64,000 nucleotides of DNA from Candidatus Limnocylindrales bacterium (GTDB taxonomy: Bacteria > Chloroflexota > Limnocylindria > Limnocylindrales > CSP1-4), in assembly GCA_035699445.1 (NCBI GenBank), contig DASSPX010000123.1:35777-99776 (forward strand). The letters are read 5' to 3'. The translations under genes were made by a program, and so were the position numbers. The notes below the pieces were generated by a model. It ran no database searches. It was not told the origin of the DNA and was given only the letters and a program-made list of their open reading frames with translations. How positions within the stretch are numbered: the stretch's first letter is position 1; every line of letters begins with the position of its first letter. Positions 6,566 to 59,779 of the stretch are shown piece after piece.

Positions 6566-7015
6566 CTAGCGGCCGGGGCTGCGCTCCGCCTCGGGGGGCA
6601 CGCTGCGGGCGCAGCGCGCGACCGCCTCGGCCAACTCCTGCGGTCGGAACGTCTTGCGCAGGAAGCCGTCGGCGCCTGCCGCCCGAACGTCCGGCTCGAG
6701 GCCGGGCGTCGAGGCCATCCCGAGGATGCGTCCACCAGCGCTCACGGCCCGGACCCTGCGGATGAACGCGAGCCCCTGCGCGAGGTCGGGCAGGCGCGGG
6801 TCGACGACGACGACGTCGGGCTGCTCGCGCCGGATGACCGTCAGCGCCTCGGCCGGCCGTCCGGCGCTGCCGACGACGCGACAGCGATCGTGGACCCCGA
6901 GCAGCCGGACGAGGCTTTCCCGCGTCCGGTCATCCGCATCCACGACCACGACGGTGGGCCCCCCGCTCGCGGCGGGCGACGCCTGAACCGGCGCGGGGGA
7001 TACGAGGTCCGTCAT
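6566..7015 (-). CDS. stand-alone response-regulator receiver domain protein
   Basis: The CheY-like fold is visible (TVVVVDADD...DVVVVDPRLPD...ADGFLRKTF). There is no output domain. It sits between the kinase and the LuxR regulator. Confidence 0.7.
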   Translation of the reverse strand: MTDLVSPAPVQASPAASGGPTVVVVDADDRTRESLVRLLGVHDRCRVVGSAGRPAEALTVIRREQPDVVVVDPRLPDLAQGLAFIRRVRAVSAGGRILGMASTPGLEPDVRAAGADGFLRKTFRPQELAEAVARCARSVPPEAERSPGR

Positions 7016-22044: not shown

Positions 22045-22890
22045 CTAGGGGGTGATCCGGAAGGCGTCGATCGCGATGTACGGCCGCCCGCGCGTCCCGA
22101 GCACCTCGATCGTGAGCGTGTGCCGGCCGGCTGCCGGCAGGCTCGTCGACCACACCGTCTCGCGCGGCTGGAACGACCCGGCGTGGAGGTCGACGACTGC
22201 GACTTCGACCCCGTCGAGCAGGATGCGCGCCTCCCCACGCGTCGGACCGGTCGGTCCCAGCCAGGCGATGCGCGTCCCGGTGAACGTGATCGTGGCGGTC
22301 GCTCCGGGCTGTGTCGCGTAGCGGGCGGCGCCACCCTGGTAGCCGCCGTGCCGGGCCATCTCCCAGGTGCCAGTCCACGCGACCGCCTGCGAGGCCTCGG
22401 AGACCGTCCTGGCGGCCGGCTCCGCAGGCGTCGCTGCCGCGGCCGGGGCCCAGCGGGAGAAGCGGGTCATCACGCGCGTCACGTAGGTCCGGGCATAGCC
22501 CGACCAGGCCCGATCCCGACCGTCGCGGCCGGTGAGCCACCAGTAGGCGACGTGGCGCCAGGAGCGGAGCCAGCGGTGGAGCGAGAGGAACTTCGCCCGG
22601 GCGACCCGCTCCTGGTTGCGCGGCGTGGGCGGCGCGTACGCGTTGCCGAGGTAGAGGCGGGCCCACGTCCGCCAGTTCGAGGGCAGGATCTGGTACTTGC
22701 CGTAGGCGCCCGACGAGGGATTGCGGGCGTTGTAGCGGCCACCCGACTCGACCGACGCGATCGCACGCATGAACGTGTCCAGACCGCTCGGGTCCTGCGC
22801 GAGCGCGGGGGCCGGCGCGGCGACGCCGAGGAGCGCGGTCGAGAGGACCGCAGCGGGGATGACCCGGGATCGGGCCGCGAGAACGCGCAA
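22045..22890 (-). CDS. secreted lytic transglycosylase-like protein with C-terminal domain of unknown function
   Basis: TTG 22890 is preceded by GGAGGAAGGAG (6-nt spacer). Signal peptide MRVLAARSRVIPAAVLSTALLGVAAPAPALA. Lysozyme-like motif MRAIASVESGGRYNARNPSSGAYGKYQILPSNW. The ORF-track start at 23172 is probably upstream junk. Confidence 0.65.
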   Translation of the reverse strand: MRVLAARSRVIPAAVLSTALLGVAAPAPALAQDPSGLDTFMRAIASVESGGRYNARNPSSGAYGKYQILPSNWRTWARLYLGNAYAPPTPRNQERVARAKFLSLHRWLRSWRHVAYWWLTGRDGRDRAWSGYARTYVTRVMTRFSRWAPAAAATPAEPAARTVSEASQAVAWTGTWEMARHGGYQGGAARYATQPGATATITFTGTRIAWLGPTGPTRGEARILLDGVEVAVVDLHAGSFQPRETVWSTSLPAAGRHTLTIEVLGTRGRPYIAIDAFRITP

Positions 22891-23223
22891 TCGGTGCTCC
22901 TTCCTCCCAGGACCGCCGCGGCGAACGACGGAGCGGTGGGCGAAGCCGCGGCGACGGATCGGGGAAGGGCGGGGACGCGCGGGCGTCGGGTGGGCTGACC
23001 GGGCCGCGGCATTGGCGACCGCCGCACAGGGCGGGGGTCGGATGTGGGCGCCGCGCCTCCCTGGCGGCGTGAGCGCCGTGGGCGACGGCGCGGTGGCAGC
23101 CGGGCGATGGCCCGGGGCTGCATCGGTCGGCGAAGGGGCGAGAGGATACGCAACGATCCCGCCGCGGGGCAAGTGCGGTGCCCGGAAGCACCGGCGCCCG
23201 ACGGAGGCGACGAGCCGCCGCGC

Positions 23224-23742
23224 CTACTCCGGGCCGATGCGCTCCAGGAACTGGGCGACCCGGTCGAGGACGTTGTCGAGCACCGGTCGCAGCGTGTGAC
23301 CGAGCCGCGGGTACGTGACGAGCTCGACGGCACGCAGCCGGCCGACGTTCGCGCGCAGCAGCTCGATCCGTGCGAACGGGTCGGCCTCGCCGGACAGGAG
23401 GAGCACCGGACAGTCGATCTCGGGCCAGTGCGCGATGCGACCGGCGGTCCGGTGCGGCGCGCCCGGCGGGTGGAGCGGGTAGCTGAAGCACACGAGCCCG
23501 CCGTACGTGCGCCGTGCCGCCGACAGGCTGGCAACGCGCCCGCCGAAGCTGTGGCCACCCACGACCACGTCCGGTCCGGACGGCGCCTGCGCCTCGAGCG
23601 CGGGCACGGCGTCCTCGGCTCGCCGCTTCGGCAGATCGAGCGTGAACGCCTCGAATCCGCGGGCGCGAAGGCCGTCGACGAACGGCGCCATGCTCGCCGC
23701 GTTGCCCGACGCGCCGTGACCGAGGTAGACACGAAGGCCCAT
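23224..23742 (-). CDS. small alpha/beta hydrolase (dienelactone-hydrolase/esterase-like)
   Basis: Nucleophile elbow GGHSFGG. C-terminus ...LGHTLRP. ATG 23742 with AGGA 9 nt upstream (alternative ATG at 23784). Confidence 0.6.
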   Translation of the reverse strand: MGLRVYLGHGASGNAASMAPFVDGLRARGFEAFTLDLPKRRAEDAVPALEAQAPSGPDVVVGGHSFGGRVASLSAARRTYGGLVCFSYPLHPPGAPHRTAGRIAHWPEIDCPVLLLSGEADPFARIELLRANVGRLRAVELVTYPRLGHTLRPVLDNVLDRVAQFLERIGPE

Positions 23743-23836
23743 GTCGGGCCATCCTAGGACCCGTACCAGCGGAGGGAGCGCCATCGCCCGATCCGGCCAT
23801 GGCGGTGCCGGCACGCACCCGGCCAGACTGGTCCGC

Positions 23837-25297
23837 ATGCGGACCTCGCCTGCCCCCAGGCCCCCGGCGTTGCCGGTCGCGCTCGCCCTGGCCGCCCTCG
23901 CGCTCCTCGTCTCCGTTGCGCCCGTCGCCGCGACCGATCCCTCGGCCGCGCCCGATCCCTCGGCCGAGCCCGCGGCCACCCCCGTCCCCACGCTGCCGGC
24001 CGGCGACCCGGCCACGACTCCCCTCCCCGCGCCGTACACCGCGTTTGTCGATCCGGCGCTGCCAGGCGGTGCCGCGAGCGTGCCCGTCGGCCTGCCCGCG
24101 GCGATCACGTTCCACGGCCGCGGGTACGGCCACGGCGTCGGGATGTCGCAATACGGCGCCCGCGGACGGGCCCTCGCGGGTCAGGACACGCCGGAGATCC
24201 TCGCCCACTACTTCCCGGGCACTACGGTGGGCTTCATCGACCCCGCGACGATCGTGCGCGTCCAGGTGCTCAGCGCGTACCCGGCGACCGCGACCCGCCC
24301 GCTCCGCATCTACGCGCGCGGCGGCGCGTGGGCGATCGAGGGGGTCGCGGCGGTCTTTCCCGCGGATGCGCAGCTCCGCGTGTGGCGCGTCTCGGTCACG
24401 ACGCCCACCGGCACCCGGACGAGCGCCTGGCGGACCGACATCGTCGATGCTTCTGGCGCGCTGCTCCACAGCGGCACGATGACCCGGAGCTTCCGCGTCT
24501 CCCCCGTCGAGCCGACGACCACCCTCCAGCTGTGGTCGAAGCCGTCCACGTACGACCGGTACCGGGGCTCGCTGCTGATCGTTGCCCGTGCGAAGCCCGA
24601 CGTGATCAACGAAGTGGGGCTCGACGACTACCTCCGCGGGGTCGTGCCGGTGGAGATGCCGGCCTCGTGGCCCGCCGCGGCGCTGCGTGCCCAGGCGATC
24701 GCCGCCCGCTCGTATGCGGCCCGCCGGATCAGGCCGGCCGCGGCATTCGACCTGTACGACGACACGCGCTCCCAGGCATACCGGGGGGTCCTCGCCGAGC
24801 GCCCGACGACGGACGAGGCCGTCGCGCTCACCGCGGGCATGGTGCTCCAGTACGGCGGAGCGATCGCGGACACGTACTTCCACTCGAGCGCCGGGGGCGC
24901 GACCGAGGCGAACGACCTCGTCTGGGTCAGCTCGACGGGACGCGTGACGGGCGCGCCGGTCCCGTACCTTCGCGGCGGGCCCGACCGGGCACCGGACGGC
25001 ACCGCGTACGACGCCGCCGCCGGCCACTACGCGTGGCAGAGCGCGACGTACACGCCCGAGCAGCTTGGCGCGATCCTCGCGCGGGATCCCCGGACGGCCG
25101 TGGGCACCCTGCTCGCGATCGACCTGTCGCGCCGGGCGCCGTCCGGGCGGGTGATCGCGATCACGCTCGCCGGCACCGCCGGCACGCGCACGGTCTCCGC
25201 CGACGTGTTCCGCGTGGTGTTCAACCGCCACAAGCCGAGCGGGCACCCGGTCCTGAAGAGCACGCTGTTCGCGATCGGGACCTGGCCGACGCCCTGA
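23837..25297 (+). CDS. SpoIID/LytB domain protein (secreted)
   Basis: Signal peptide MRTSPAPRPPALPVALALAALALLVSVAPVAA. SpoIID signature GRGYGHGVGMSQYGA. ATG 23837. Confidence 0.85.
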   Translation: MRTSPAPRPPALPVALALAALALLVSVAPVAATDPSAAPDPSAEPAATPVPTLPAGDPATTPLPAPYTAFVDPALPGGAASVPVGLPAAITFHGRGYGHGVGMSQYGARGRALAGQDTPEILAHYFPGTTVGFIDPATIVRVQVLSAYPATATRPLRIYARGGAWAIEGVAAVFPADAQLRVWRVSVTTPTGTRTSAWRTDIVDASGALLHSGTMTRSFRVSPVEPTTTLQLWSKPSTYDRYRGSLLIVARAKPDVINEVGLDDYLRGVVPVEMPASWPAAALRAQAIAARSYAARRIRPAAAFDLYDDTRSQAYRGVLAERPTTDEAVALTAGMVLQYGGAIADTYFHSSAGGATEANDLVWVSSTGRVTGAPVPYLRGGPDRAPDGTAYDAAAGHYAWQSATYTPEQLGAILARDPRTAVGTLLAIDLSRRAPSGRVIAITLAGTAGTRTVSADVFRVVFNRHKPSGHPVLKSTLFAIGTWPTP

Positions 25298-44186: not shown

Positions 44187-44608
44187 TGGTTCCGGTAGCG
44201 GTTCGCGTTCCGGAGCCGCCGGGCCTGGGCCTGGAGCATCCGGAACATCACCCTCGGGTGGGCGACGAGGAACGCCTCCACCCCCGAGCCGGCGAGCACG
44301 ATGCAGCGCAGCGGGCGGGTGGCGACCACGTCGGCCGACGGCGGCTCCCCGAGCAGGATCGACACCTCGCCGAAGAAGTCACCCTTGCTGAGGATCGCGC
44401 GATCCACCCCGTCGACGATCACCTTCGCCTCGCCGTCCAGGATGACGTAGAACCCGGAGCCGGTCAGGCCCTGGCGCAGGATCCGCTGGCCCTCCGGGAA
44501 GAACGCCTCCTCGAACGTGTGGGCGACCCCGAGGAGCTGCGGAGTGGTGAGGTCCGCGAACAGGGTGAAGCCGGCCAGCGTGTCGGCGATCTCGTCCCGG
44601 GTCGCCAT
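44183..44608 (-). CDS. cyclic-nucleotide-binding domain protein (CNB only, 141 aa)
   Basis: ATG 44608 with GGAGGG upstream. FFPEGQRILRQGLTGSGFYVILDGEAKV...GDFFGEVSILLGEPPSADVVA is a Crp/PKA-type CNB domain. No HTH or other effector domain. Confidence 0.75.
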   Translation of the reverse strand: MATRDEIADTLAGFTLFADLTTPQLLGVAHTFEEAFFPEGQRILRQGLTGSGFYVILDGEAKVIVDGVDRAILSKGDFFGEVSILLGEPPSADVVATRPLRCIVLAGSGVEAFLVAHPRVMFRMLQAQARRLRNANRYRNQ

Positions 44609-44735
44609 CGTCCCTCCGGTCGGCCGGCGCATCCCTGTGCGACGCGCGAGCAGTGCATGCGAGGCGGCGATCGTGCCACACCCGGACCCCGACCGGGAGC
44701 CCCGCGCGTTGACGCCGCCCGACGGGGACGGCACG

Positions 44736-45191
44736 ATGCGACCGACCGATGGCACGAGCACGATGACCCTCACCCACGACCGGCGCAGCGAGCTGCTCGC
44801 CGCCTGCCGCCTGTTCTCCGGTCTCGACGCGGCCAGCCTCGACGCCGTCGCCGAGGCCGCGATCGAGGTGGACTTTCCGGCCGACCGAGTCATCGCCCGC
44901 CAGGGCGACATCGGGACGGGGTTCTTCGTCGTCGTGGACGGCCGGGTGCGGGTCGTGCGCGACGGCGAGCGGGTGGCGACGCTCGGACCGGGCGAGTTCT
45001 TCGGCGAGCTGTCGGTGATCGACGGCGGGCCGCGGAACGCGCACGTCGTGGCCGAGGTGCCCACCCGCTGTCTCGCGATCGCATCGTGGGACTTCGAGCG
45101 CGTCCTGCTCGCCCACCCCGCGCTTGCGCTCACCGTGCTCCGGATCGTCGTCGCCCGCCTGCGCGCGTCGACGAGCGACCACCGGTACTGA
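44736..45191 (+). CDS. cyclic-nucleotide-binding domain protein (CNB only, ~150 aa)
   Basis: FSGLDAASLDAVAEAAIEVDFPADRVIARQGDIGTGFFVVVDGRVRV...GEFFGELSVIDGGPRNAHVVA. Start at ATG 44736 or 44763. Divergent from the other CNB gene. Confidence 0.7.
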   Translation: MRPTDGTSTMTLTHDRRSELLAACRLFSGLDAASLDAVAEAAIEVDFPADRVIARQGDIGTGFFVVVDGRVRVVRDGERVATLGPGEFFGELSVIDGGPRNAHVVAEVPTRCLAIASWDFERVLLAHPALALTVLRIVVARLRASTSDHRY

Positions 45192-45220
45192 CCCGGCCTC
45201 CGGACCAGCGGAGCGTCCGG

Positions 45221-47917
45221 ATGCCCGCCACGCTTCCCACCGGGCCGCTCGTGTTCTGCTTCACGGACATCGAGGGCTCGACCCGGCTCGTGCTCGATCT
45301 GGGCACCGATCGCTGGGAGCCCCTGCTCGCCCGTCATCGGGCGCTGCTGCGCGCCGCCATCGCGGGGCATGGCGGCCACGAGGTGCTGACGGAGGGGGAC
45401 GGGTTCTTCGTCGTGTTCACCGATCCGGTGGCGGCCGTGAGCGCTGCCGCCGACGTCCAGCGCGTCATGGCCGGCGAGGGGTGGCCGGCCGAGGCGCCGA
45501 TCCGGGTGCGGATCGGGCTCCACCTCGGTGACGGTCGGCTGGACGCGGACGGGACGTACGTCGGCGGCGACGTCCACCGTGCGGCGCGCATCGCCGCCGC
45601 GGGCCATGGCGGCCAGATCGTCTGCTCCGGGGAGCTCGCTGCCGCCGTTGCGGGTCGCCTTCCCGCCGGACTCGACCTCCGCTCGCAGGGCGAGCACCGG
45701 CTGAAGGACCTGCGCCCCGAACCGCTGTGGGACGTCGTCGTCGCCGGCCTGCCCTCGGACTTCCCGCCGATCCGCTCGCTCGATGCCCGGCCGAACAACC
45801 TGCCGGTCCAGCTCACGACGTTCGTCGGCCGGGAGCGGGAGCTGGCCGATGCGCTCGGGTTGCTCGATCGGAACCGGCTGGTGACGCTCACCGGGCCCGG
45901 CGGGACCGGCAAGACACGGCTGGCGCTCCACGTCGCGGCAAACGCGGCCGAGCGATTCGCGGACGGCGTGTGGTTCGTGCCCCTCGACACCGTCGTGGAC
46001 CCGACGCACGTCCTGCCCGCCGTCGCGACCGTGCTCCGCCTCCGCGAGCGCCCCGGCGTGGCCCACGCGTCGCTCATCGTCGAGGCGCTCGCCGGCCGAC
46101 GGGTGCTGCTCGTGCTCGACAACCTCGAGCAGGTGCTCGCCGCGGGGCCCTCGATCGCCGCGCTCCTCCGGGAGCTGCCGCTGCTCAAGGTGCTGGCCAC
46201 GAGCCGGGCCGTCCTCCGGGTCTCCGGCGAGCAGGAGCTGCCCGTGCCCGGCCTGCCGGTTCCGGAGCTGCCCGATCAGCGCACGGTCGCCCACGCCGGC
46301 GGCGGTCGACCCCGGACCGTGGACGAGCTCATGGCGTTCGACGCGGTCGGGCTGTTCGTGGCACGGGCGCAGGCCGCGCGGCCGGGGTTCGAGCTGTCGC
46401 CCGACAACGCGGTCGCGGTCGCCGCGATCTGCGCCCGGCTGTCGGGCATGCCGCTCGCGATCGAGCTCGCGGCGGCCCGGGTGCGGGTGCTCCCGCCGGC
46501 GACGATCCTCGAGCGGCTGTCACGAACGCTCGACCTGCTCACCGGCGGCGCGCGCGACCTCCCGGCGCGGCAGCAGAGCCTGCGCGGCGCGATCACGTGG
46601 AGCTACGAGGTGCTCGACGAGGCGTGCCGGCGCCTGCTCGAGCGGCTGGCCGTGTTCGCGGGCGGCGCGGCGCTCGAGGACGCAGAGGCGGTCTGCGGCC
46701 CGGCCGACGAGCTCGGCCAGGAGGTCATCGACGGGCTCGTCTCGCTTGCCGAGCAGAGCCTGATCCGGATCGACGCCGACACGCCCGGGTCGGCCACGGG
46801 CGGGCCACGCTACTCGCTCCTCGTGCCGATCCGCGAGTTCGCGCTCGAGCAGCTCGAGGCACGGGGCGAGGCCGCCGGGGTCCGGCGGCGCCATGCCACG
46901 AGGTTCCTCGAGCTCGTCGAGCTCGCCGCGCCGAACCTGACGGGACTCGATCGCGGCCGGTGGCTCGACCGGCTCGACGTGGAGCTCGAGAACCTGCGCG
47001 GGGCGCTCGACCACCTGATCGCGACGAGCGACGCAGCGGGCGCCTGGCGCTTCGTGGCCGCCGCATGGCGGTTCTGGCAGGTCCGCGGCCACATGGCCGA
47101 GGAGATCGCGCGCGTAAAGGCGGCGCTGGTGCTGCCTGCAGCGGAGGCGGACCTGGAGCTGCGCCTCCGCGCGGTCTCGGCGCTCGGCGGCCTGTGGTGG
47201 TGGATGGGCGATCACGACGCGTCGGCGGCGGCGTACCGGGAGGTGCTCGACGCCCGCCGCGCGCAGGGTGACGACGCGGCGATTGCCGCCGCGCTGTACG
47301 ACTACGGGTTCCCGCGCCAGTTCCGGAGCCCGGAGGAGGCGATGGCGGGGTTCGAGGAAGCGCGGGAGCGGTACGCCCGGCTCGGCGACGCCGACGGCGA
47401 GGCACGCGCGTGGTGGGGCATCGCGAACGCGGCATGGGTGCGCGGCGAGCAGGAGCAGTCCCGCGAGGCGGCGCGGCGGGCGGCCGGGCACTTCCGGGCC
47501 GCTGGCCTCCCGTTCGACCTCGCCTGGTCGCTGTTCACGCTGGGGACCGTCGCGATCAGCCTTCGGGAGTTCGAGGAGGCGCACGCCTCGCTCGTCGACG
47601 CGCTGTCCCTGTTCGCGGAGGTCGACGATCTCAGCGGCGCGGCGCTCACGCTCGACGCGCTGTCGCTGGCGGCGTGGCTCCAGGACGATCGAATGCGGGC
47701 CGCCCGGCTCGCCGGCGCGGTCGCACGTCTCGAGCGCTCGACGGGCTTCGGGCTCAACCCGGCGAACCGGGCCGTCCACGGCTACGACCCGGCGTCCCTT
47801 CGCGACGACCCGGCGACAGCGTCCGCGTGGGCCGAGGGCGACGCGATGGACCTCGCGCGCGTGATCGAGCTCGCCCGGGACGCAAGGCCGCTCGGGGCCG
47901 GGTCGGCCACGCCATGA
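45221..47917 (+). CDS. class III adenylate/guanylate-cyclase (CHD) – NB-ARC/STAND ATPase – TPR protein (898 aa)
   Basis: N-terminus VFCFTDIEGSTRL...GHEVLTEGDGFFVVF...YVGGDVHRAARIAAAGHGGQIVCS is the cyclase homology domain. It is followed by P-loop LTGPGGTGKTRLAL, Walker B LLVLDNLEQV, then helical/TPR-like repeats. There is no C-terminal HTH. ATG 45221. Confidence 0.9.
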   Translation: MPATLPTGPLVFCFTDIEGSTRLVLDLGTDRWEPLLARHRALLRAAIAGHGGHEVLTEGDGFFVVFTDPVAAVSAAADVQRVMAGEGWPAEAPIRVRIGLHLGDGRLDADGTYVGGDVHRAARIAAAGHGGQIVCSGELAAAVAGRLPAGLDLRSQGEHRLKDLRPEPLWDVVVAGLPSDFPPIRSLDARPNNLPVQLTTFVGRERELADALGLLDRNRLVTLTGPGGTGKTRLALHVAANAAERFADGVWFVPLDTVVDPTHVLPAVATVLRLRERPGVAHASLIVEALAGRRVLLVLDNLEQVLAAGPSIAALLRELPLLKVLATSRAVLRVSGEQELPVPGLPVPELPDQRTVAHAGGGRPRTVDELMAFDAVGLFVARAQAARPGFELSPDNAVAVAAICARLSGMPLAIELAAARVRVLPPATILERLSRTLDLLTGGARDLPARQQSLRGAITWSYEVLDEACRRLLERLAVFAGGAALEDAEAVCGPADELGQEVIDGLVSLAEQSLIRIDADTPGSATGGPRYSLLVPIREFALEQLEARGEAAGVRRRHATRFLELVELAAPNLTGLDRGRWLDRLDVELENLRGALDHLIATSDAAGAWRFVAAAWRFWQVRGHMAEEIARVKAALVLPAAEADLELRLRAVSALGGLWWWMGDHDASAAAYREVLDARRAQGDDAAIAAALYDYGFPRQFRSPEEAMAGFEEARERYARLGDADGEARAWWGIANAAWVRGEQEQSREAARRAAGHFRAAGLPFDLAWSLFTLGTVAISLREFEEAHASLVDALSLFAEVDDLSGAALTLDALSLAAWLQDDRMRAARLAGAVARLERSTGFGLNPANRAVHGYDPASLRDDPATASAWAEGDAMDLARVIELARDARPLGAGSATP

Positions 47918-50604
47918 CGCGGGGGCCCCTCCCGTCGGGCACCGTCACGTTCCTGTTCACCGACGTCGAGGGCTCGACGCGCCTGGTCGCCGACATCGGC
48001 GACGACGCGTACCGGGAGCTCCTCGACACGACCCGGCAACTGATCGCCGGCCCGGTGACGGCCGAGGGTGGCGTCGTGTTCGGTGCCGAGGGCGACGCGC
48101 AGTTCGCCGCGTTCGGGTCGGCCGTCGACGGCATCCGCGCCGCCGCCGCGGCGCAGCGGGCGATCGCGGGGTATCCGTGGCCCGGGACGCAGCTCCGCGT
48201 GCGGATGGGGGTCCACACCGGCGCCGCCCAGGTCGTGGGCGACGACTACGTGGGGCTCGAGGTCCATCGCGCGGCCCGCGTCGCCGCCGCGGCCCATGGC
48301 GGCCAGGTGCTCGTCTCTGGCTCGAGCCGCGCCCTCGCCTCGGAGGCGGCCCTCGATGGGCTGGGCTTCCGTGACCTGGGCGACCACCGCCTCAAGGACC
48401 TGGCCGTCCCGGAGCGGCTGTTCCAGCTCACCGGCGACGATCTCGAACCGACGTTTCCCCCGCCGCGCACGCTCGACGCCTCCCCGAACAACCTGCCTCC
48501 GCAGCTGACGCCGTTCGTCGGGCGCGCGGAGGTCGACACGATCGGGCGGGTGATCGACGAGGCACGTCTGGTGACGCTCACGGGACCGGGCGGCACGGGC
48601 AAGACGCGACTGTCCCTCGAGCTCGCCGGCGCGCGCCTCGGCCGGTACACCGGCGGCGTCTGGTTCGTGCCCCTCGCGTCGATCCGCGACCCCGAGCTGG
48701 TCGCCTCCGCGATCGCGACCGCCGTCGGACTCGTCGCCCCGGGCCGGCCGCCGCTCGAACGCCTGATCGAGCATTTCCGTGACCGCGATGCGCTTGTCGT
48801 GCTCGACAACTTCGAGCAGGTCGTCGACGCCGCGCCGACCGTTTCGGCGCTGCTGGCGGGCGTGCCGGGCCTGCGCGTCGTCGTCACCAGCCGCGGGCCA
48901 CTGCGGATCGCCGGGGAGCGGGAGCTGCCCGTCCCGCCGCTCGCCGTGCCCGCGGTGAGCGAGCTGGATCCGGACGCCCTCGTCCAGGTCGAATCCGTGC
49001 GGCTGTTCGTCGAGCGGGCGATGGCCGTCCGCCCCGACTTCGTGCTGACGCCGGACAACGCGGCCGCGATCACCGAGATCGTCCATCGGCTCGATGGCCT
49101 GCCCCTCGCGATCGAGCTCGCGGCTGCCCGCGTCCGCCTGCTGCCGCCGGTCGCGCTCGCCCAACGGCTCGGGAGCCGGCTCGACCTCCTCGTCGGCGGC
49201 GATCGGGACCGGTCCGACCGGCAGCGAACACTCCGCGGCGCGATCGAGTGGAGCCACGACCTGCTCGATGCGCCGGCTCGCCTGGCGTTCGCGCGGCTGG
49301 GGGTGATCCGGGGGAGCGCACCGCTCGACGTCGCCGTGGAGCTGGCGGGGCCCGCGGACGAACTGGGCGCCGATCCCCTGGCGACGCTCGAGGCACTCCT
49401 CGACCAGAGCCTGGTGCGTGCGCTCCCGGGCGAATCCGGCGAGTCGCGCATCTCGATGCTCGAAACGATCCGCGAGTACGCGCTCGAACGGCTCACCGAG
49501 CTGGGCGAGACGGAGCGGCTTCGGGACCGGCACGCCGCGATCTACGAGCGGCTCGCCGCGGAGCTCAGCCGGAGCCTCTACGGCCGGAACCGGCGCCAGG
49601 TGCTCGATCGATACGAGCTCGAGCATGACGACCTGCGCGCGGCGCTCGAGTGGCGGATCGCGCAGGACGACTGCGAGCGTGCGGCGGCACTCCTCGTGTC
49701 CACGTGGCGGTTCTGGCAGGCGCGGGGCCACATCGAGGAGGGGCGGCAGCGTGCGGACGAGGTGCTGGAGATCGTCGGCTGGCCGACGACGCCGCCCGGG
49801 GCGCGGATCCAGGCCCTCGAGGCGGCGGGTGGCCTCGCGTACTGGGCGGGCGACCTGCCGCTCGCCCACCGCCGATACGCGGAGCAGCTCGAGATCGCCC
49901 GGCGGATCGATGAGCCCGCGCTGATCGCGAACGCGCTCCTCAATCTCGCCGCGAGCCCCACGGACGATCGCGACCAGACGGCGTGGATGGCGTCGGTCGC
50001 GTCGTCGCTCACGATGGCCGAGGAAGCCCTGGCCCGGTTTCGTGCCCTGGGTGACGAGGACGGCGAGGCCAGGGCGTTCTGGCAGGTGGGGGAGTCCCGG
50101 TTCTACCGCGGCGAGATCGATGCCGCCGAGGAGGCGCAGACCGCGGCGCTCGGAATCTTCGAGCGGCGGGGCGAGGAGTTCTGGTCCGCGTGGGCGAGGT
50201 TCACCCGCGGGCTCTCCCGCTGGACGCGAGGCGACGTCGCCGGCCTGCTGACCGATGCGCGCGCGGCGCTCGAGCGCTTCGAGCGCGCTGGCGACCTGTC
50301 CGGTCTCGCGCTCCTCGGGATCCTCCTCGCCGCGGTGCTCCACGACCGGGGGCTCCAACGTGAGGCGCAGCGGCTGGCGGGCGCCGTCCAGGGCGTCATC
50401 GAGCGGTCCGGGGCGGGCCTCGGGCTGCTTGTCCCTGGCGGCGCGGATCGGCCGCTGCTCGACGCCCGCGCGGATCCCGCGCTGCGCGCCGAATGGGAGG
50501 CCGGGTTCGGGCTGGGACGGGATGAGGCGTTCGCGCTCGCGCTCGCCGCCACCGAGCCCGACGGCCTCGGCCCGGGTGTGGACCGCAGCCGGACGCCGGG
50601 GTAG
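47914..50604 (+). CDS. class III nucleotidyl-cyclase (CHD) – NB-ARC/STAND ATPase – TPR protein, paralog 2 (896 aa)
   Basis: Same architecture as the upstream gene (TFLFTDVEGSTRL...; LTGPGGTGKTRLSL; VVLDNFEQV; TPR-like C-terminus). The ATG overlaps the stop of paralog 1 (ATGA). Confidence 0.9.
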   Translation: MTRGPLPSGTVTFLFTDVEGSTRLVADIGDDAYRELLDTTRQLIAGPVTAEGGVVFGAEGDAQFAAFGSAVDGIRAAAAAQRAIAGYPWPGTQLRVRMGVHTGAAQVVGDDYVGLEVHRAARVAAAAHGGQVLVSGSSRALASEAALDGLGFRDLGDHRLKDLAVPERLFQLTGDDLEPTFPPPRTLDASPNNLPPQLTPFVGRAEVDTIGRVIDEARLVTLTGPGGTGKTRLSLELAGARLGRYTGGVWFVPLASIRDPELVASAIATAVGLVAPGRPPLERLIEHFRDRDALVVLDNFEQVVDAAPTVSALLAGVPGLRVVVTSRGPLRIAGERELPVPPLAVPAVSELDPDALVQVESVRLFVERAMAVRPDFVLTPDNAAAITEIVHRLDGLPLAIELAAARVRLLPPVALAQRLGSRLDLLVGGDRDRSDRQRTLRGAIEWSHDLLDAPARLAFARLGVIRGSAPLDVAVELAGPADELGADPLATLEALLDQSLVRALPGESGESRISMLETIREYALERLTELGETERLRDRHAAIYERLAAELSRSLYGRNRRQVLDRYELEHDDLRAALEWRIAQDDCERAAALLVSTWRFWQARGHIEEGRQRADEVLEIVGWPTTPPGARIQALEAAGGLAYWAGDLPLAHRRYAEQLEIARRIDEPALIANALLNLAASPTDDRDQTAWMASVASSLTMAEEALARFRALGDEDGEARAFWQVGESRFYRGEIDAAEEAQTAALGIFERRGEEFWSAWARFTRGLSRWTRGDVAGLLTDARAALERFERAGDLSGLALLGILLAAVLHDRGLQREAQRLAGAVQGVIERSGAGLGLLVPGGADRPLLDARADPALRAEWEAGFGLGRDEAFALALAATEPDGLGPGVDRSRTPG

Positions 50605-51900: not shown

Positions 51901-52959
51901 TCAGCCGCCGAGGGCGAACATCTCCACGCGGGGCAGGTCCGCGGTCGCCTCGGACCGGAGCTCCGAGTAGCGGTCGGTCCGGGGTGCCCAGATGCGCGAG
52001 ATGAGCGCCTCCAGCTCCGCGTCATCCGCACCGCCGCGCATCGGTCCGCGAAGGTCGTGGCCCTTCACCGCGAACAGGCACGTGTAGAGCATGCCGTCGG
52101 CGGCGAGCCTGGCACGAGTGCAGTCGGCGCAGAACGGGTGCGTCACCGACGCGATGATCCCCACCTCGCCGGAGCCGTCCCGGTAGCGGTACCGCCCGGC
52201 GACCTCGCCGCGGTAGTCGGGCTCCACCGGCTCGAGCGGGAACTCGGCGTCGATCCGTGCCACGAGCTCGTCCGCCGGAACGACGTCGTCCAGGCGCCAG
52301 CCGTTCGAATGGCCGACGTCCATGTACTCGATGAACCGGAGGACCAGCCCCTCCTCGCGCGCCCAGCGCACCATCGGCAGCACGCTGTCCTCGTTGAGGC
52401 CGCGCCGGACGACCATGTTCACCTTGATCGGCGCGAGGCCGGCGGCGCGCGCAGCGGCGATGCCGTCGAGCACCCGGGACACCGGGAAGTCGACCCCGTT
52501 CATCCGGCCGAACACCTCGTCGTCGAGCGAGTCGAGGCTGACGGTGATCCGCTGCAGGCCCGCCTCGGCGAGCGGTCCCGCGAGCGGGCGGAGCGCGGAC
52601 CCGTTCGTCGTCAGCGTGAGGTCGGTCGGCGTGCCGTCCGGCGCGGAGATCGCCGCGAGCTGGCGGACGAGGACGGGCAGGTCCCGGCGGACGAGCGGCT
52701 CACCCCCGGTGATCCGGAGCTTGTGCACCCCGAGTCCGACGAAGATCCGGGCGAGGCGGGTGATCTCCTCGAACTCCAGGACGAGCTCCCGCGGCAGGAA
52801 CGCGAAGTCGCGGCCGTACACCTCGGCGGGCATGCAGTAGCTGCAGCGGAAGTTGCACCGGTCGGTGACCGAGATCCGAAGGTCCCGCAGCGGGCGCGCG
52901 AACGCGTCGACGAGCGGCAGCGTGCGATCCGTCCTGGCGACCGTCGCGGGAGCGTCCAT
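51901..52959 (-). CDS. moaA: GTP 3',8-cyclase (molybdenum cofactor biosynthesis protein A)
   Basis: Radical-SAM cluster CNFRCSYC. The MoaA C-terminal Cys motif CADCTRARL. About 350 aa. Confidence 0.9.
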   Translation of the reverse strand: MDAPATVARTDRTLPLVDAFARPLRDLRISVTDRCNFRCSYCMPAEVYGRDFAFLPRELVLEFEEITRLARIFVGLGVHKLRITGGEPLVRRDLPVLVRQLAAISAPDGTPTDLTLTTNGSALRPLAGPLAEAGLQRITVSLDSLDDEVFGRMNGVDFPVSRVLDGIAAARAAGLAPIKVNMVVRRGLNEDSVLPMVRWAREEGLVLRFIEYMDVGHSNGWRLDDVVPADELVARIDAEFPLEPVEPDYRGEVAGRYRYRDGSGEVGIIASVTHPFCADCTRARLAADGMLYTCLFAVKGHDLRGPMRGGADDAELEALISRIWAPRTDRYSELRSEATADLPRVEMFALGG

Positions 52960-53234
52960 CGCGCGATGGTAGCCCTCCCGGCCCCGAAGGCTCGCGCGTC
53001 ACCCCGGCTGGGGCCGCACCGCACCGCATGCCGCGGCCGCGGTGCCGGCATGCACAGCCGGCGGTGCCCGGCGGCACGCGGCCCGAGACGCATGGCAGGC
53101 CGCCGGTACCATGGGGCGGCACAGGTGGTACCTCCTGTGGAGTCCACCACACCGGATCCCTCTCTATCGTCCTCATCGGACCCCGGTCACGCACCGGCCC
53201 GACTGTGCCCGACGTGGAGAGGACTCGATCCGAG

Positions 53235-54587
53235 ATGGCGACCACCGACGCGAAGACCGGCTTCCGGCTTCCCTGGACGGCCGAACGATCCGAGCACGCG
53301 GACGACGCTTCGTCCCACGGCGATCCCGCCGCGCCCGAGGCCTGGCCGGCTGCCGACGCAGCGCAGGTGACCGCCGACGCGCCAGCGCCGGATGCTGCCG
53401 TCACCGGCACCGCCCCCGGGGGCAACCCGCATCGTCGGCCCTCGAAGTTCCTCGCCGACCTCACGAAGGCGATGCAGGCCGCAGCCGAGCAGGCGCGCGA
53501 GCAGACGCTGACGCAGTTCCAGGCCGATGCGAAGGCCTTCGTCGAGCTCATCCACGAGACCTCGGCGGCCGACATCACCACGATCCGGTCTGCGGCCGAC
53601 GGCGACATCGCCGGCATCCGCGAATGGTCGAAGGCCGAGATCGCCCGAATCCGCGAGGAGACCGAGCAGCGGATCACGCAGCGCAAGAGCGAGCTCGAGC
53701 GGCAGCTCGAGGATCACGCAGCCTCGATCGAGGCGCGGATCGAGCGAGTCCACGGCACCGTCGCCGCGTTCGAATCCCGGATGGCCGCGTTCTTCGAACG
53801 GCTGCTCACCGAGGACGACCCCGGCGCGTTCGCATCGATGGCCGAGAACCTCCCGGAGCCGCCGCGGTTCGAGGACATCCTGCCCGAGGCCTTCAATGCC
53901 CCGGCTGCCGCCGCCCCCGCGGCCGTGGAGGCGCACGCCGCCCCCGAGGCTCCCGAGGCGGCCGTCGACGCGGCTGCCCCCGTCGATCATCAGCCCGAAG
54001 CCGAAGCCGAAGCGGAAGCGGAGCCCCCTGCCAACGCGGTTGCCGAAACCGTTGCCGAGGCGGAGCCCGTCGCCGAGGCGGACACGGCGTGGCCGGTCGC
54101 GGAGCAGGCGGAGGAAGCCGGGGACCAGGCGCCCTCCCCGGAGGTCGACGACACCACCAGCGCGATGGACCTTGACGCCGCCGAGGCCGAGGCCGCGCTC
54201 GCGTTTCGTGCCCAGGCGACCGCCGAATCCGCGGACGCGGAGGGTGGGCTCATGGATGCCTCGCTCATGCAGCGCCTTGCCGGCCTCGGGGTCTCGCTGG
54301 GCCCCGACCATGTGGGCGAGAACGTGTCCACCCAGGTCGTGGTCGTGGGTCTCGTGTCGGTCGCCTCGATCGCGTCGTTCAAGCGCCATCTGACCCGGGT
54401 CGACGGCATCGAGTCCGTGGGCGTCACGTCGGGTCCCGACGGCGAGTTCGTGTTCAATGTCGCCCACCGCGTCGACGTCGGCCTGGCCGAGGTCGTCACG
54501 ACCCTGCCGGGCTTCGGCGCCCGGGTCACCGACTCGGCGGACGGCGTCATCCACGTGACGGCGCACGATCCCGAGACGGACGCGTAG
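53235..54587 (+). CDS. coiled-coil / acidic low-complexity protein with conserved C-terminal ~90-aa domain (unknown function)
   Basis: GGAGAGGA upstream of ATG about 53235. Residues ~70-200 have heptad-like Ala/Glu/Arg/Gln-rich helices. A long E/A/P acidic linker (AEAEAEAEPPANAVAE...) follows. The C-terminal block is VSTQVVVVGLVSVASIASFKRHLTRVDGIESVGVTSGPDGEFVFNVAHRV. Confidence 0.6.
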   Translation: MATTDAKTGFRLPWTAERSEHADDASSHGDPAAPEAWPAADAAQVTADAPAPDAAVTGTAPGGNPHRRPSKFLADLTKAMQAAAEQAREQTLTQFQADAKAFVELIHETSAADITTIRSAADGDIAGIREWSKAEIARIREETEQRITQRKSELERQLEDHAASIEARIERVHGTVAAFESRMAAFFERLLTEDDPGAFASMAENLPEPPRFEDILPEAFNAPAAAAPAAVEAHAAPEAPEAAVDAAAPVDHQPEAEAEAEAEPPANAVAETVAEAEPVAEADTAWPVAEQAEEAGDQAPSPEVDDTTSAMDLDAAEAEAALAFRAQATAESADAEGGLMDASLMQRLAGLGVSLGPDHVGENVSTQVVVVGLVSVASIASFKRHLTRVDGIESVGVTSGPDGEFVFNVAHRVDVGLAEVVTTLPGFGARVTDSADGVIHVTAHDPETDA

Positions 54588-54589
54588 GC

Positions 54590-55822
54590 ATGGCACGACC
54601 CCTGGTCGTCCTCGCGCTTCCCCACGCGGAGCACGAGGCGGTCGCGACGGAGCTGCGTGCCGCGGGCTTCGAGACGGCCGACGTCCAGCGACCCGAGGAG
54701 CTCGAGGCCATCCTGGGCCGGCGGCGCGACGTCGGCGTCGCCATCCTCGACGCCGAGGCCAACCTCGACCTCGCGCTCGAGCTCTGGGCCGTCCTCCACG
54801 AGGACGGGCGCTCGGTCCCGGCGATGCTCATCGTCTCACCGAGCACGCTCGAGCGCCTCGAGATGGGCGCGACTGCTGCGGCGATCGACGACGAGTACGT
54901 CACCCGCCCCTACTCCACCGAGTCGATCCGCTGGCGGGTCGAGGCGATGTGCATCCGCAGCCAGGCGGTCGACGACGGCAGCGGGCCTGTCCTCCAGGGC
55001 GGCCCGATCGAGGTCGAGGGCTGGGCGCAGCGCGGCACGATCGTCGCGGTGTTCAACCCCAAGGGCGGCGTCGGCAAGACCACGGTGTCCACGAACCTCG
55101 CCTCGGCGCTCGTCGTCCGCAAGCAGCGCCAGGTCCTGCTCGTCGACGCAGACACGGTCACCGGCCATGTCGCCACGTCGCTCGCCCTCGAGGACACCTC
55201 CACGCTCGTGGACGCCCTCCGCGACGACCCGGGCGGCGCGCGCGTGGGGCTCGAGCAGGTCTCGTCCTCGCACCCGTCGGGCCTGCGCGTGGCCACGCTC
55301 GCATCGTCGCCGATCTACGCCGAGCTGCTCGATCCGGAGCAGGTGGGTCTCGCGCTCGAGGCGGCGCGGCGCGGCCAGGACTTCGTGATCGTCGACCTGC
55401 ACCCGTCGTACAGCCCGCTCAACCAGGTCGTGTTCGACCGCGCCGACCGGATCCTCGTGCCGGTGACCCCGGACGTGCCCGCGATCCGCGCCGCCGTGCA
55501 GCTGCGCGAGATCGCCTCCGAGCTCGGTATCCGCGACAAGCTCGCGATGGTCGTGAACCGCGCGAACAGCGGCGTGTCGGTGGCGGACATGGAGCGGACC
55601 GTCGGGATGGAGGCGCTCGCGCTCATCCGGTCGGGCGGCATGCTGTTCGTCCGGGCGGCGAACGAGGGCCGGACGGTGATCGACCTCTTCCCGCGGGAGC
55701 GGATCACCGAGGACTTCGATGCGCTCGCCGACCGGATCCTCGGCGCACCCCGCAGGCCCGAGCCGGAGAAGACGGGCTGGCGGCTGTTCGGCGGCCGCCT
55801 GCGGGTGCCCGCGCGCGTCTGA
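54590..55822 (+). CDS. receiver-like domain + ParA/MinD-family ATPase (CpaE/TadZ-like architecture)
   Basis: N-terminal REC-like fold (VVLALPHAEHEAVATELRAAGFE...VAILDAEAN...MLIVS). ParA/MinD domain with deviant Walker A VFNPKGGVGKTTVSTNLA and LLVDADTVTGH. The ATG lies 2 nt after the upstream stop. Confidence 0.8.
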   Translation: MARPLVVLALPHAEHEAVATELRAAGFETADVQRPEELEAILGRRRDVGVAILDAEANLDLALELWAVLHEDGRSVPAMLIVSPSTLERLEMGATAAAIDDEYVTRPYSTESIRWRVEAMCIRSQAVDDGSGPVLQGGPIEVEGWAQRGTIVAVFNPKGGVGKTTVSTNLASALVVRKQRQVLLVDADTVTGHVATSLALEDTSTLVDALRDDPGGARVGLEQVSSSHPSGLRVATLASSPIYAELLDPEQVGLALEAARRGQDFVIVDLHPSYSPLNQVVFDRADRILVPVTPDVPAIRAAVQLREIASELGIRDKLAMVVNRANSGVSVADMERTVGMEALALIRSGGMLFVRAANEGRTVIDLFPRERITEDFDALADRILGAPRRPEPEKTGWRLFGGRLRVPARV

Positions 55823-56014
55823 CGCGAGCCGCCTCACCGCTCGCGCGCGATGCGCGAGGCGCATCACTGACGACCGATCCGGCCTCCGAAGGGGCGTCAG
55901 CCGTCGCTTCGATGTGCAAGGCGCATCGACGTGCTGCGCGGCGGGCGTCCGCGGCCGTTGCGGTCGTCAACGATGACCCTGGCGCATCGCCAGGGTCAGC
56001 CGGCCCCGGCTCCC

Positions 56015-56674
56015 TCAGCGCGAGTTCCGGTCCGAGTACGACACCCCACCCAGCGGCGCACCGGGCAGCCGCTGGTGGCGCTCGCCCGTGCGCTTGTCGA
56101 CCTGCTCGACCGCGCGCAGGTAGAAGCGGTTGACGAGGACCGCGTCGACGTCCTCGTCCGTCACGACCTGATCGCCCAGGTACGCGATCGCGTCGACGAC
56201 CGGCGTGAACATCTCGGTCGCGCGCTCGAGGAGCCGGTCCGGCTCCGATCCGGGGTAGAGGTACACGGTGCCGATCACCCGGAACGGCGGCAGGTCCAGC
56301 TTCACGTCGTAGGCGATCTTGTGGACCTTGTGCGCGGCGCGCTCGGCCTCGCTGAGCGGCGGCAGCGAATCGCCGCCCGCCACGACGAGGATGAGGTCGT
56401 ATGGATCGACGCTCTTCAGCCCCGGCGCCGGCTCGAGCGGTCCCGAGCCGTCGATCGGGCCCCACTGGACGTCCCGGATCGGGATCGCCTCGCGGCGGTT
56501 GAGCACGTCCGACAGCCGGCCCTCGGTGTCCATCCGGCCGACCAGCCGCCACTCCTCGGTCAGCCCCTCGAACGCGATTCCGCCCGCCGGGCCGCGCCGG
56601 GACCCCGGGTGCGACGCATCCGCACGACCCCCCGGTGCCGCCTCCCGGCGGCGCTTCAGGAACCCGAAGGGCAC
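56015..56674 (-). CDS. hypothetical protein (219 aa) immediately downstream of acs
   Basis: GTG 56674 lies 2 nt after the acs stop. The composition is non-junk (MPFGFLKRRREAAPG...DPYDLILVVAGGDSLPPLSEAERAAHKVHKIAYDVKLDLPPFRVIGTVYLYPG...). No family recognised. Confidence 0.5.
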   Translation of the reverse strand: MPFGFLKRRREAAPGGRADASHPGSRRGPAGGIAFEGLTEEWRLVGRMDTEGRLSDVLNRREAIPIRDVQWGPIDGSGPLEPAPGLKSVDPYDLILVVAGGDSLPPLSEAERAAHKVHKIAYDVKLDLPPFRVIGTVYLYPGSEPDRLLERATEMFTPVVDAIAYLGDQVVTDEDVDAVLVNRFYLRAVEQVDKRTGERHQRLPGAPLGGVSYSDRNSR

Positions 56675-58834: not shown

Positions 58835-59779
58835 TCAGTCCGTCCCCGCGGACAGCTCCTCGTCTGACGGCCCGCCGGGCGCGAACGGGTCCGGAACGGC
58901 CGCCCCCGGGTCTCGCGCCAAAACGACACGCTGCGGGCGCGGGATCTCGATCCCGTTCGCCGCGAACGCCTCGAGCAGCCGTTTGCGCAGCTCGCCACCC
59001 GCCGCCCACTGCTCCGACGCCCGGACGGTGCCCAGGATCTTCAGCGTCACGCCGTACTCGCCGAGTGCCTCGACGCGCTCGACCCGCGGCGGCTCGAGTA
59101 CCCGCCGCTTCCACACCGGGTCGTCGTGCATCGCCTGGCCCACCCCGTCGACGACGGAGATCGCCCGGTCGATGTCCGTCCCGTACGCGACCGTGACGTC
59201 CTGGTTGATCCGCGCCCACGTCCGCGTCCGGTTCGACGCGACCTTGATCTCGCCGTTGGGCACGGTGTGGACGACGCCGTCGAGGTCGCGCAGCGTGGTC
59301 CGACGGAGCGAGAAGTCCTCCACCACTCCGGTCACCCCGGCGATCGTCACCACGTCGCCCTTGCTGAACTGGTTCTCGACGAGGATGAGCGCGCCCGTGA
59401 AGTAGTCGCGCACGAGGCTCTGGGCGCCGAAGCCGACCGCGATCCCGACCACGCCCAGGCCCGCGATCGCCGGCCCGATGTCGAGGTGCAGCTCGCCGAG
59501 CACCATCACCCCGGCGATGAGCGCGATGAACACGCGGATGACGTTCGTCCCGAGCTCGCCAAGCGTGTCCATCCGCTTCTTGATCTCGACCGCGCTCAGC
59601 TCCTGGGCCGTGCCCTCCGTCGCCTCGCGATCCATGAGCGCCTTCACGATTCCCCGCACGAACGCGCCCGCCACGCGCGCGACGACGATCGCCACGATCG
59701 CGATGAGCACGATCGGCAGGATCGGATCGCGCAGGAGCGAGACCGCCTCGGCCCAGGGGGACTCCGTGAGGTCGGGCAT
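58835..59779 (-). CDS. mechanosensitive ion channel, MscS family
   Basis: Three N-terminal TM helices followed by the MscS beta-domain (SLVRDYFTGALILVENQFSKGDVVTIAGVTGVVEDFSLRRTTLRDLDGVVHTVPNGEI). Confidence 0.85.
   Translation of the reverse strand: MPDLTESPWAEAVSLLRDPILPIVLIAIVAIVVARVAGAFVRGIVKALMDREATEGTAQELSAVEIKKRMDTLGELGTNVIRVFIALIAGVMVLGELHLDIGPAIAGLGVVGIAVGFGAQSLVRDYFTGALILVENQFSKGDVVTIAGVTGVVEDFSLRRTTLRDLDGVVHTVPNGEIKVASNRTRTWARINQDVTVAYGTDIDRAISVVDGVGQAMHDDPVWKRRVLEPPRVERVEALGEYGVTLKILGTVRASEQWAAGGELRKRLLEAFAANGIEIPRPQRVVLARDPGAAVPDPFAPGGPSDEELSAGTD

Follow-up and report, generated by a model that had tools for sequence, protein, structure and literature searches.

Two adjacent genes at the locus

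We analyzed a 64-kb stretch of DNA (64,000 nucleotides; hereafter the window) of contig DASSPX010000123.1 from a Candidatus Limnocylindrales bacterium, with a focus on two neighboring forward-strand genes, gene 1 and gene 2. With a probability of roughly 0.6, we read them as a two-gene operon that encodes a membrane-acting ATPase of the ParA/MinD type (gene 2) and its cognate partner protein (gene 1). The window is 73–74% G+C and its raw lists of open reading frames (ORFs) were full of spurious frames; genes were called by a frame plot of third-position GC content (GC3) together with a GC3-based gene call. Gene 1 had a GC3 of 0.90 and gene 2 one of 0.96, and both frames were accepted as genuine genes. 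The start of gene 1 was confirmed by its homologues, all of which begin with MATTDAK or MASTDAK. Its stop codon, TAG at 54585–54587, is followed by the dinucleotide GC and then by the ATG of gene 2 at 54590. The original prediction, made from the sequence letters, had described two genes that lie 2 nt apart and are translationally coupled. The genes and their spacing were upheld by the GC3 frames and by the positions of the stop and start codons; strict coupling is not conserved, with gaps in relatives ranging from a 4-nt overlap (locus L086) to ∼60 nt. The features of the pair are as follows.

53235–54587 (+): gene 1, candidate partner protein, 450 amino acids (aa), without a Pfam, NCBIfam or PDB family (GC3 frame; homologues)
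53235–53288 (+): gene 1 N-terminal conserved peptide MATTDAKTGFRLPWTAER (near invariance in both gene 1 alignments)
53445–53870 (+): gene 1 conserved helical block, residues 71–212 (AlphaFold2 model; hendecad periodicity)
53871–54173 (+): gene 1 acidic, Ala/Glu/Pro-rich disordered linker, residues 213–313 (composition; model confidence below 50)
54321–54560 (+): gene 1 C-terminal ferredoxin-like domain, residues 363–442 (AlphaFold2 model)
54590–55822 (+): gene 2, receiver-like domain, ParA/MinD ATPase and C-terminal tail, 410 aa (translation; Pfam AAA_31, CbiA and ParA)
54590–54964 (+): gene 2 receiver-like, probably pseudo-receiver, domain, residues 1–125 (hhalign to canonical receivers)
55028–55753 (+): gene 2 ParA/MinD ATPase domain, residues 147–388 (intact deviant Walker A; hhalign to MinD)
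55754–55819 (+): gene 2 C-terminal tail RPEPEKTGWRLFGGRLRVPARV, candidate MinD-type membrane-targeting sequence (position and pattern)

Domains of gene 2

The ATPase domain of gene 2 carries the deviant Walker A motif VFNPKGGVGKTT, in which FNPKGGVGKTT, with the lysines K158 and K163, fits the superfamily pattern xKGGxxK[ST] and its signature lysine, together with the Walker A′ and Walker B aspartates that define the ParA/MinD superfamily. Across 30 gene 2 homologues, K158, G159, G160, G162, K163, T164, T165, D186, D188 and D269 were all invariant, which indicates a catalytically competent deviant-Walker-A ATPase. The Pfam models AAA_31, CbiA and ParA matched above their cut-offs, over the ATPase part only, and the predicted membership of this superfamily was thus borne out. 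Homologues of gene 2 are uniform in length (408–412 aa) and 62–67% identical across the class. The highest-scoring NCBIfam model was nominally ParA_partition (NF041546, 79.6 bits against a cut-off of 180), followed by the Ssd/CpaE-homologue model (TIGR03815, 73.7 bits against 154.45, with the ATPase part alone aligned) and minD_bact (TIGR01968, 59.2 bits against 212.9); all of these scores were below their cut-offs, which leaves gene 2 outside every one of the curated subfamilies. In a profile comparison by hhalign, the domain aligned with Escherichia coli MinD at a probability of 97%, and the closest PDB entries by sequence were a ParA-family ATPase (3ea0), MinD, Soj and FleN. The 60 best PDB matches to the gene 2 family profile did not include TadZ.

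The N-terminal domain of gene 2 was compared, profile against profile, with a set of canonical receivers composed of E. coli CheY and PhoB and the two response regulators encoded in the window, and aligned with them at a probability of 83% (E = 9e-6). In this alignment, Asp54 pairs with the phospho-acceptor Asp57 of CheY, Ser83 with Thr87 and Arg106 with Lys109. The original prediction had asked whether the phospho-acceptor is retained and supposed that the receiver gates the ATPase. Asp54 is indeed kept, being invariant in the gene 2 alignment, but gating by phosphorylation did not fare as well: the Mg-binding acidic pair after the first β-strand is replaced by Ala-Leu-Pro (ALPxxE) and the lysine by arginine in 30 of 30 aligned members, so that two of the five signature positions are gone and only D54 and S83 remain of the full response-regulator set (acidic pair, Asp, Thr/Ser and Lys). 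The Pfam Response_reg model (PF00072) gave no match to gene 2 at E ≤ 1. Given the loss of the acidic pair and the Lys-to-Arg replacement, the domain, which is receiver-derived, is more likely a pseudo-receiver.

The alignment with MinD extends to residue 388 in gene 2 and 251 in MinD; past this point, and in gene 2 just behind the last helix of the ATPase, each protein has a short tail. The gene 2 tail, PEPEKTGWRLFGGRLRVPARV, sits where E. coli MinD has EEEKKGFLKRLFGG. Its counterparts in other lineages read KxxFRLFGRQK, GSLLKNLFGRKAI and RSLLGGLFRGKEA, and the patterns conserved across lineages were KxxFRLFGR, GSLLKNLFGRK and RSLLGGLFRGK. By position and pattern, the tail is a candidate MinD-type membrane-targeting sequence. 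A hydrophobic-moment test of the terminal peptides did not confirm the tail, but the E. coli MinD and MinE controls did not stand out in it either, which makes the test uninformative. We found no description of a protein that combines a receiver-like domain with what appears to be a MinD-type tail.

Domains of gene 1

A hypothetical protein of a Candidatus Limnocylindrales metagenome-assembled genome (MAG) matches gene 1 at 100% identity, which places the DNA in the uncultured Chloroflexota class Limnocylindria and not among the Actinobacteria; gene 1 has more than 2500 homologues. It defines a family for which the databases have no model: it matched no family in Pfam and none significantly in NCBIfam, had no relative by sequence in the PDB and gave no match to a DNA-binding domain in Pfam. 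We described its anatomy using two alignments, of 19 and 73 homologues, and an AlphaFold2 (AF2) model. The first 66 residues are predicted to be disordered and are variable, except for the first 18 (MATTDAKxGFRLPWSSDR), which are nearly invariant. The family consensus of this peptide is M-x5-6-[KR]-x-G-F-[RK]-L-P-W, with the glycine always 7–8 residues past the initiator methionine and a lysine or arginine two residues ahead of it. GFRLPW was present in 119 of the 123 gene 1 ORFs that include the N-terminus, with GFKLPW, GFRFPW and GFRVPW as the variants. In a six-frame search of 1.84 Mb of related DNA, all 127 occurrences of GF[RK]LPW were at gene 1 N-termini, one for each locus. A divergent lineage keeps the peptide as MSSQQKRGFRLPW, and a second, paralogous module described below keeps it as MTANQRRPGFRLPW, where most of the remaining protein can no longer be aligned by BLASTP.

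Partners of ParA/MinD ATPases are known to carry a conserved basic N-terminal peptide within a disordered stretch, joined to oligomerization domains (PMC7993993, PMC10241942). Gene 1 has the peptide, the disorder, a probable interaction or oligomerization domain and the adjacency to an ATPase gene that mark such partners, which form a functional class rather than a homology family (PMC7993993), and it is therefore most probably the cognate partner of gene 2. By analogy with these partners, it may possibly act as an activator of the gene 2 ATPase.

We also considered whether the N-terminal peptide of gene 1 (KTGFRLPW) mimics the tail of gene 2 (KTGWRLFG). The resemblance holds in some lineages only; elsewhere the tail becomes GSLLKNLFGRK and GFRLPW stays fixed, and the idea was rejected for that reason.

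Following the disordered region, residues 71–192 are modeled as a single helix of ∼120 residues with a predicted local distance difference test (pLDDT) score above 95, after which short helices extend as far as a conserved MAENLPEPPxF motif. The long helix shows a hydrophobic periodicity of 3.67–3.7 residues, a signal exceeding the 99th percentile of the maxima from shuffled sequences, and has almost no power at 3.5; when written in 11-residue rows, the helix is hydrophobic at positions 3, 7 and 11. It is likely a coiled coil of the hendecad rather than the heptad type, or else an amphipathic rod of a related kind, and the weak ATP-synthase-b and apolipoprotein-like matches of gene 1 fit such a helix. 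Alanine makes up 34%, glutamate 18% and proline 13% of the linker at residues 213–313, which has a net charge of −26; its pLDDT is below 50, and it cannot be aligned and varies in length between homologues. Two short helices with the motifs DFxAAEAEA and LAARLAGL lie between the linker and the C-terminal domain.

The most conserved globular part of gene 1, its C-terminal domain, is predicted to adopt a β-α-β-β-α-β-β topology, with a pLDDT of ∼95 in the full-length model and, when modeled alone, a pLDDT of 88.7 and a predicted template modeling (pTM) score of 0.78. Foldseek against the PDB returned generic ferredoxin-like folds only (S6, HMA, ACT and Lrp/RAM; best E 0.012) and no match at or below 1e-3. 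The domain contains no cysteine and therefore no HMA-type metal site. Of the architecture originally proposed for gene 1, a coiled coil followed by an acidic Glu/Ala/Pro linker and a compact C-terminal domain, all three parts were recovered, except that the coiled coil is not heptad-based; the structure prediction that had been suggested for the last part yielded the ferredoxin-like fold.

Linkage and co-divergence of the pair

We then collected related loci from two sources. In a scan in which each GTDB species was represented by a single genome, gene 1 relatives turned up in 360 species, from which 80 loci were kept for analysis; all of these were from MAGs of Chloroflexota/Limnocylindria, except for two probable mis-bins. 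A metagenome scan provided 80 further loci, including the divergent lineage. Adjacency was scored with profile hidden Markov models, and a locus was regarded as testable if it had at least 350 nt upstream of gene 2 for the C-terminal domain of gene 1 or at least 1.7 kb for its helix block. The C-terminal domain was encoded directly upstream of gene 2 on the same strand in all 149 testable loci (149/149), and the helix block was found upstream in 127 of the 127 loci that had at least 1.7 kb. In the divergent lineage, where gene 2 is 43–48% identical, the pair is kept and the gene downstream of it, gene 3, is gone.

The divergence of the two genes was also correlated. Spearman's ρ for gene 2 was 0.78 with the helix block of gene 1 (n = 130) and 0.61 with its C-terminal domain, and the two parts of gene 1 gave 0.65 with each other, as compared with −0.15, −0.35, 0.36 and 0.32 for gene 2 with the flanking genes moaA, acs, pnp and mscS, respectively. 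The original prediction had called for a check of gene-neighborhood conservation, and the pair passed it by its constant adjacency, by this co-divergence and by the presence of a distant second pair elsewhere. Persistence, co-divergence and the second module argue for genes 1 and 2 being a functional unit.

A second, paralogous module

A search of representatives with gene 2 returned relatives of the same architecture at 27–43% identity, among which a family at 34% identity (P0286) is also from Limnocylindria. Its members lie in a conserved neighborhood, tig-clpP-ogt-clpX-mscS′(−)-X-valS-p243-g2′-Zn-ribbon-…-fhaA-fhaB-rodA-pbp-moxR, which is unrelated to that of genes 1 and 2 (module 1). In this module 2, the unannotated protein X proved to be a homologue of gene 1 (g1′) with the same N-terminal peptide, helix block and C-terminal domain; the helix blocks match at E ∼1e-29 and the C-terminal domains at E ∼1e-17, with 37% identity. 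The genes g1′ and g2′ are ∼4 kb apart. The receiver of the paralogous ATPase is nearly canonical, with Glu/Asp-Asp after the first β-strand, the aspartate and the lysine, so that the ancestor was probably a phospho-regulated true receiver.

The mscS gene is shared by the two neighborhoods. It is syntenic in nearly all module 1 loci, and the module 2 copy (L168:2849–3760, −), which is divergent from the gene 1 paralogue, encodes a protein that shares 60% identity, over 259 residues, with the MscS encoded in the window. The presence of such similar MscS copies beside both modules suggests that the duplicated block included mscS, and hence an ancient segmental duplication of an mscS/gene 1/gene 2 cluster, as judged from sequence comparison.

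Gene 3 encodes a 219-aa protein and is convergent to gene 2. Over ∼80 loci, it comprises an N-terminal peptide of the form (M/V)PF(D/G)FLKRKK, MPSFRLFGR or MPFNLFRRG, a variable linker and a conserved domain of ∼170 aa; the peptide (PFGFLKRRR) resembles the N-terminus of E. coli MinE, MALLDFFLSRKK. Gene 3 starts 2 nt past the stop of the acetyl-CoA synthetase gene and is thus probably co-transcribed with it; it may conceivably be an accessory partner of the pair. In module 2, p243, directly upstream of g2′, encodes 242–251 aa without a Pfam match, with a C-terminal zinc ribbon and a conserved N-terminus, MSFLRRKK, a peptide similar in kind to that of gene 3, although a BLASTP comparison of the two proteins detected no homology. 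The features of these two regions are as follows.

56015–56674 (−): gene 3, 219 aa, no Pfam match, convergent to gene 2, possible accessory partner (conserved N-terminal peptide)
58835–59779 (−): MscS-family channel gene (Pfam MS_channel domains; tied to the module by recurrence only)
L163:4540–5862: module 2 gene-1-like protein (also in L164, L168 and L169)
L163:10001–11218: module 2 receiver-MinD ATPase, g2′, 34% identity (also in L164, L168 and L169)
L163:9142–9873, L164:9142–9897, L168:8145–8876 and L169:8135–8863: p243

Proposed mechanism and its weaknesses

In the mechanism we propose, an ATP-bound sandwich dimer of gene 2 would attach to the cytoplasmic membrane via its MinD-like C-terminal tails, and the degenerate receiver would serve for dimerization, other protein–protein contacts or docking rather than as a phospho-switch. 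Gene 1 would be oligomerized by its hendecad rod and ferredoxin-like domain into a scaffold or cargo link, display several GFRLPW peptides on flexible tethers and use its acidic linker as a spacer. Docking of these peptides on the ATPase dimer would then lead to hydrolysis and release, as in ParB, MinE, PomX and McdB. We infer the physical interaction of the two proteins, the stimulation of the ATPase and its binding to the membrane from the anatomy and linkage described above, and the process served is inferred in the same way. For that process, our leading guess is spatial control of division or of cell-envelope growth, which we offer tentatively on the basis of the class-wide conservation, the membrane-type tail and the position of module 2 beside fhaAB-rodA-pbp. 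A bolder extension, which we regard as improbable, is that the duplicated module comprises MscS, a GFRLPW-bearing hendecad scaffold and a receiver-MinD ATPase, possibly with a MinE-like ‘FLKRKK’ partner, and links the state of the membrane to division or to the placement of RodA and the PBP, as a lineage-specific alternative to MinCDE/DivIVA in which one copy would be phospho-regulated and the other would be a pseudo-receiver.

In this proposal, the pair would operate in the manner of MinD/MinE or PomZ/PomX. Among known systems, the Min system shares several traits with the pair: the alignment of the ATPase with E. coli MinD, an aromatic and basic C-terminal tail at the MinD position, a partner that would work via an N-terminal peptide and the MinE-like N-terminus of gene 3. 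Unlike MinD, gene 2 falls far below the minD_bact cut-off and begins with an additional domain, the receiver-like one; the window genes and the flanks of related loci contained no MinC or MinE domain, and neither the sequence nor the fold of gene 1 is related to MinC or MinE. FlhG uses a C-terminal amphipathic helix, and the gene 2 ATPase has structures of its counterpart FleN among the closest relatives by sequence in the PDB; the window, however, contains no flagellar genes, no FlhF and no activating DQAxxLR-type N-terminus, and gene 2 adds the receiver-like domain.

Several points weigh against the reading of genes 1 and 2 as a membrane-acting ATPase and its partner. The block pnp-moaA-gene 1-gene 2-(gene 3)-acs-mscS is syntenic across the class, so that adjacency in module 1 does not by itself count as independent evidence and may be inherited. 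Co-divergence was scored as identity to one reference over loci that are phylogenetically non-independent and is a crude measure. In module 2, g1′ and g2′ are not adjacent, with valS and the 243-aa gene in between, and modules 1 and 2 are known from separate loci, not from one genome. The net charge of the N-terminal peptide is modest, +1 over residues 1–18, and the tail was assigned as putatively membrane-targeting from pattern and position alone.

Alternative explanations

The alternative that survives best, which we nevertheless consider unlikely, is a nucleoid-based positioning of cargo similar to that of McdAB or PomXYZ, in which gene 2 would be a non-specific DNA binder, with gene 1 as a condensate-forming or scaffolding adaptor by which a cytoplasmic cargo, or the site of division over the nucleoid, would be marked. 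The layout of gene 1, with a disordered N-terminus and peptide, a coiled coil and a low-complexity linker, is like that of McdB and PomX (PMC7993993), and ParA_partition was nominally the best NCBIfam model for gene 2. Its score was far under the cut-off, however; the tail of gene 2 is of the MinD type and sits where that of MinD does; a Pfam search of the window found no carboxysome or chemotaxis genes, no ParB and no other genes for a cargo; and gene 1 is strongly acidic, so that it is unlikely to bind DNA itself. The pair is thus not a ParA–ParB partition system, having a sub-threshold ParA score, an acidic partner and no ParB-type domain. The PomX-PomZ system of Myxococcus and the McdB-McdA system of carboxysomes are alike in joining a ParA/MinD ATPase to a non-conserved partner with an N-terminal activating peptide, disorder and a coiled-coil scaffold (PMC7993993, PMC10241942), but they have no sequence homology with the pair, they use the nucleoid as a matrix where the tail here suggests the membrane, and PomZ and McdA have no receiver domain. 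Of the analogy with these systems drawn in the original prediction, the partner-protein hallmark was recognized in gene 1, and the nucleoid matrix was not retained since the MinD-like tail points to the membrane.

Quite unlikely, in our view, is that the two genes have no direct partnership and serve unrelated processes in a region frozen in a slowly rearranging clade. This explanation draws on the presence of moaA, pnp, acs and mscS as constantly as gene 1 and on the splitting of the module 2 homologues by valS and another gene. It has difficulty with the same-strand arrangement and short gaps (−4 to ∼60 nt), with a divergence that is coupled between genes 1 and 2 but not to the flanks, with the recurrence of both families in a second, unrelated neighborhood and with the partner-type N-terminal peptide of gene 1.

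The chances are smaller still that gene 2 is a phospho-regulated response regulator, in which an unlinked histidine kinase would phosphorylate Asp54 and thereby switch the dimerization of the ATPase and its localization. The invariance of Asp54, the presence of Ser83 and Arg106 at the Thr and Lys positions and the nearly canonical receiver of the paralogue would suit such a switch; against it stand the replacement of the acidic pair and the lysine in every aligned member, the lack of a Response_reg match and the absence of a linked kinase gene, the only histidine kinase in the window being 40 kb from the pair and accompanied by two regulators of its own. That kinase (7112–13306, −) is a 2064-aa sensor protein with ∼8 GAF domains, several PAS domains and HisKA_3/HATPase_c, and a single-domain receiver (6566–7015, −) and a NarL/LuxR-type response regulator (5846–6541, −) are encoded 3′ of it.

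Least probable is that gene 2 is an orphan TadZ/CpaE that localizes a Tad/Flp pilus encoded elsewhere with gene 1 as a polar landmark: it shares with TadZ, CpaE and actinobacterial Ssd the order of an atypical receiver and a ParA/MinD ATPase, and the Joint Genome Institute (JGI) labels many of its homologues ‘pilus assembly protein CpaE’, such database annotations having been transferred from the TadZ/CpaE family, but TadZ is described as exclusive to Tad systems, the Ssd/CpaE score is less than half of its cut-off, TadZ is outside the 60 best PDB matches, and the constant linked partner is gene 1 and not a pilus gene. Gene 2 also differs from these proteins in its canonical KGGVGKTT P-loop and MinD-like tail. 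A Pfam search of the ∼55 genes of the window found no Flp, Tad, CpaF, T2SSE or T2SSF domain, and no tad, flp or cpaF gene was found within 8–10 kb of the pair in ∼160 related loci on contigs of up to 3 Mb. The absence of pilus genes noted in the original prediction was thus extended to the relatives, and the pair was not part of a tad locus in the window or in any of these loci; the CpaE/TadZ architecture that had been named stands as a domain order and not as a family. Judged from this context and from the model scores, we concluded that gene 2 is not a TadZ/CpaE pilus gene.

ParA/MinD ATPases organize much of the bacterial cell, and the diversity of their partners leaves many of these ATPases as ‘orphans’. 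Under the reading of genes 1 and 2 as a membrane-acting ATPase and its partner, one such orphan, a ‘CpaE-like’ ATPase from an abundant uncultured class of soil and freshwater bacteria, is assigned to a previously undescribed partner family, whose six-residue N-terminal motif, GFRLPW, is directly testable. The label ‘pilus assembly protein CpaE’ on thousands of gene 2-type proteins is probably wrong. We found no relevant literature on cell division or pili in Limnocylindria, and if the pair does control division or wall growth, it would be a first handle on the cell biology of this class and would add a receiver-fused, membrane-type variant to the known positioning systems.

Other features of the window

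A scan of 52800–56200 for sigma-70 promoters and terminators gave no promoter-like site and one terminator-like site, inside gene 1, at chance level. Rfam had no match in the whole window, and no riboswitch was found between moaA and gene 1. PADLOC gave no defense-system match; genes 1 and 3 were without any match and the single match of gene 2 was to its P-loop (E = 8e-4, 40 residues).

Near gene 1 are genes for a cyclic-nucleotide (cNMP)-binding protein, two adenylate-cyclase/STAND proteins, a PNP-family phosphorylase and MoaA, the last of which is divergent from gene 1. On the other strand, 3′ of gene 2, the 219-aa protein of gene 3 is followed by acetyl-CoA synthetase, the MscS channel, an epimerase and UbiE. 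The cNMP-binding protein and the two tandem proteins after it (44517–50604, +), each of ∼900 aa with an adenylate/guanylate cyclase domain, a STAND/AAA NTPase and TPR repeats, are encoded in a region that is syntenic upstream of the module in the related MAGs L001 and L002. Farther upstream, at 22045–25297, we found cell-wall-related genes, for a transglycosylase-like protein of the Rpf/resuscitation type and a SpoIID-domain protein, with ABC-2 transporters on their flanks.

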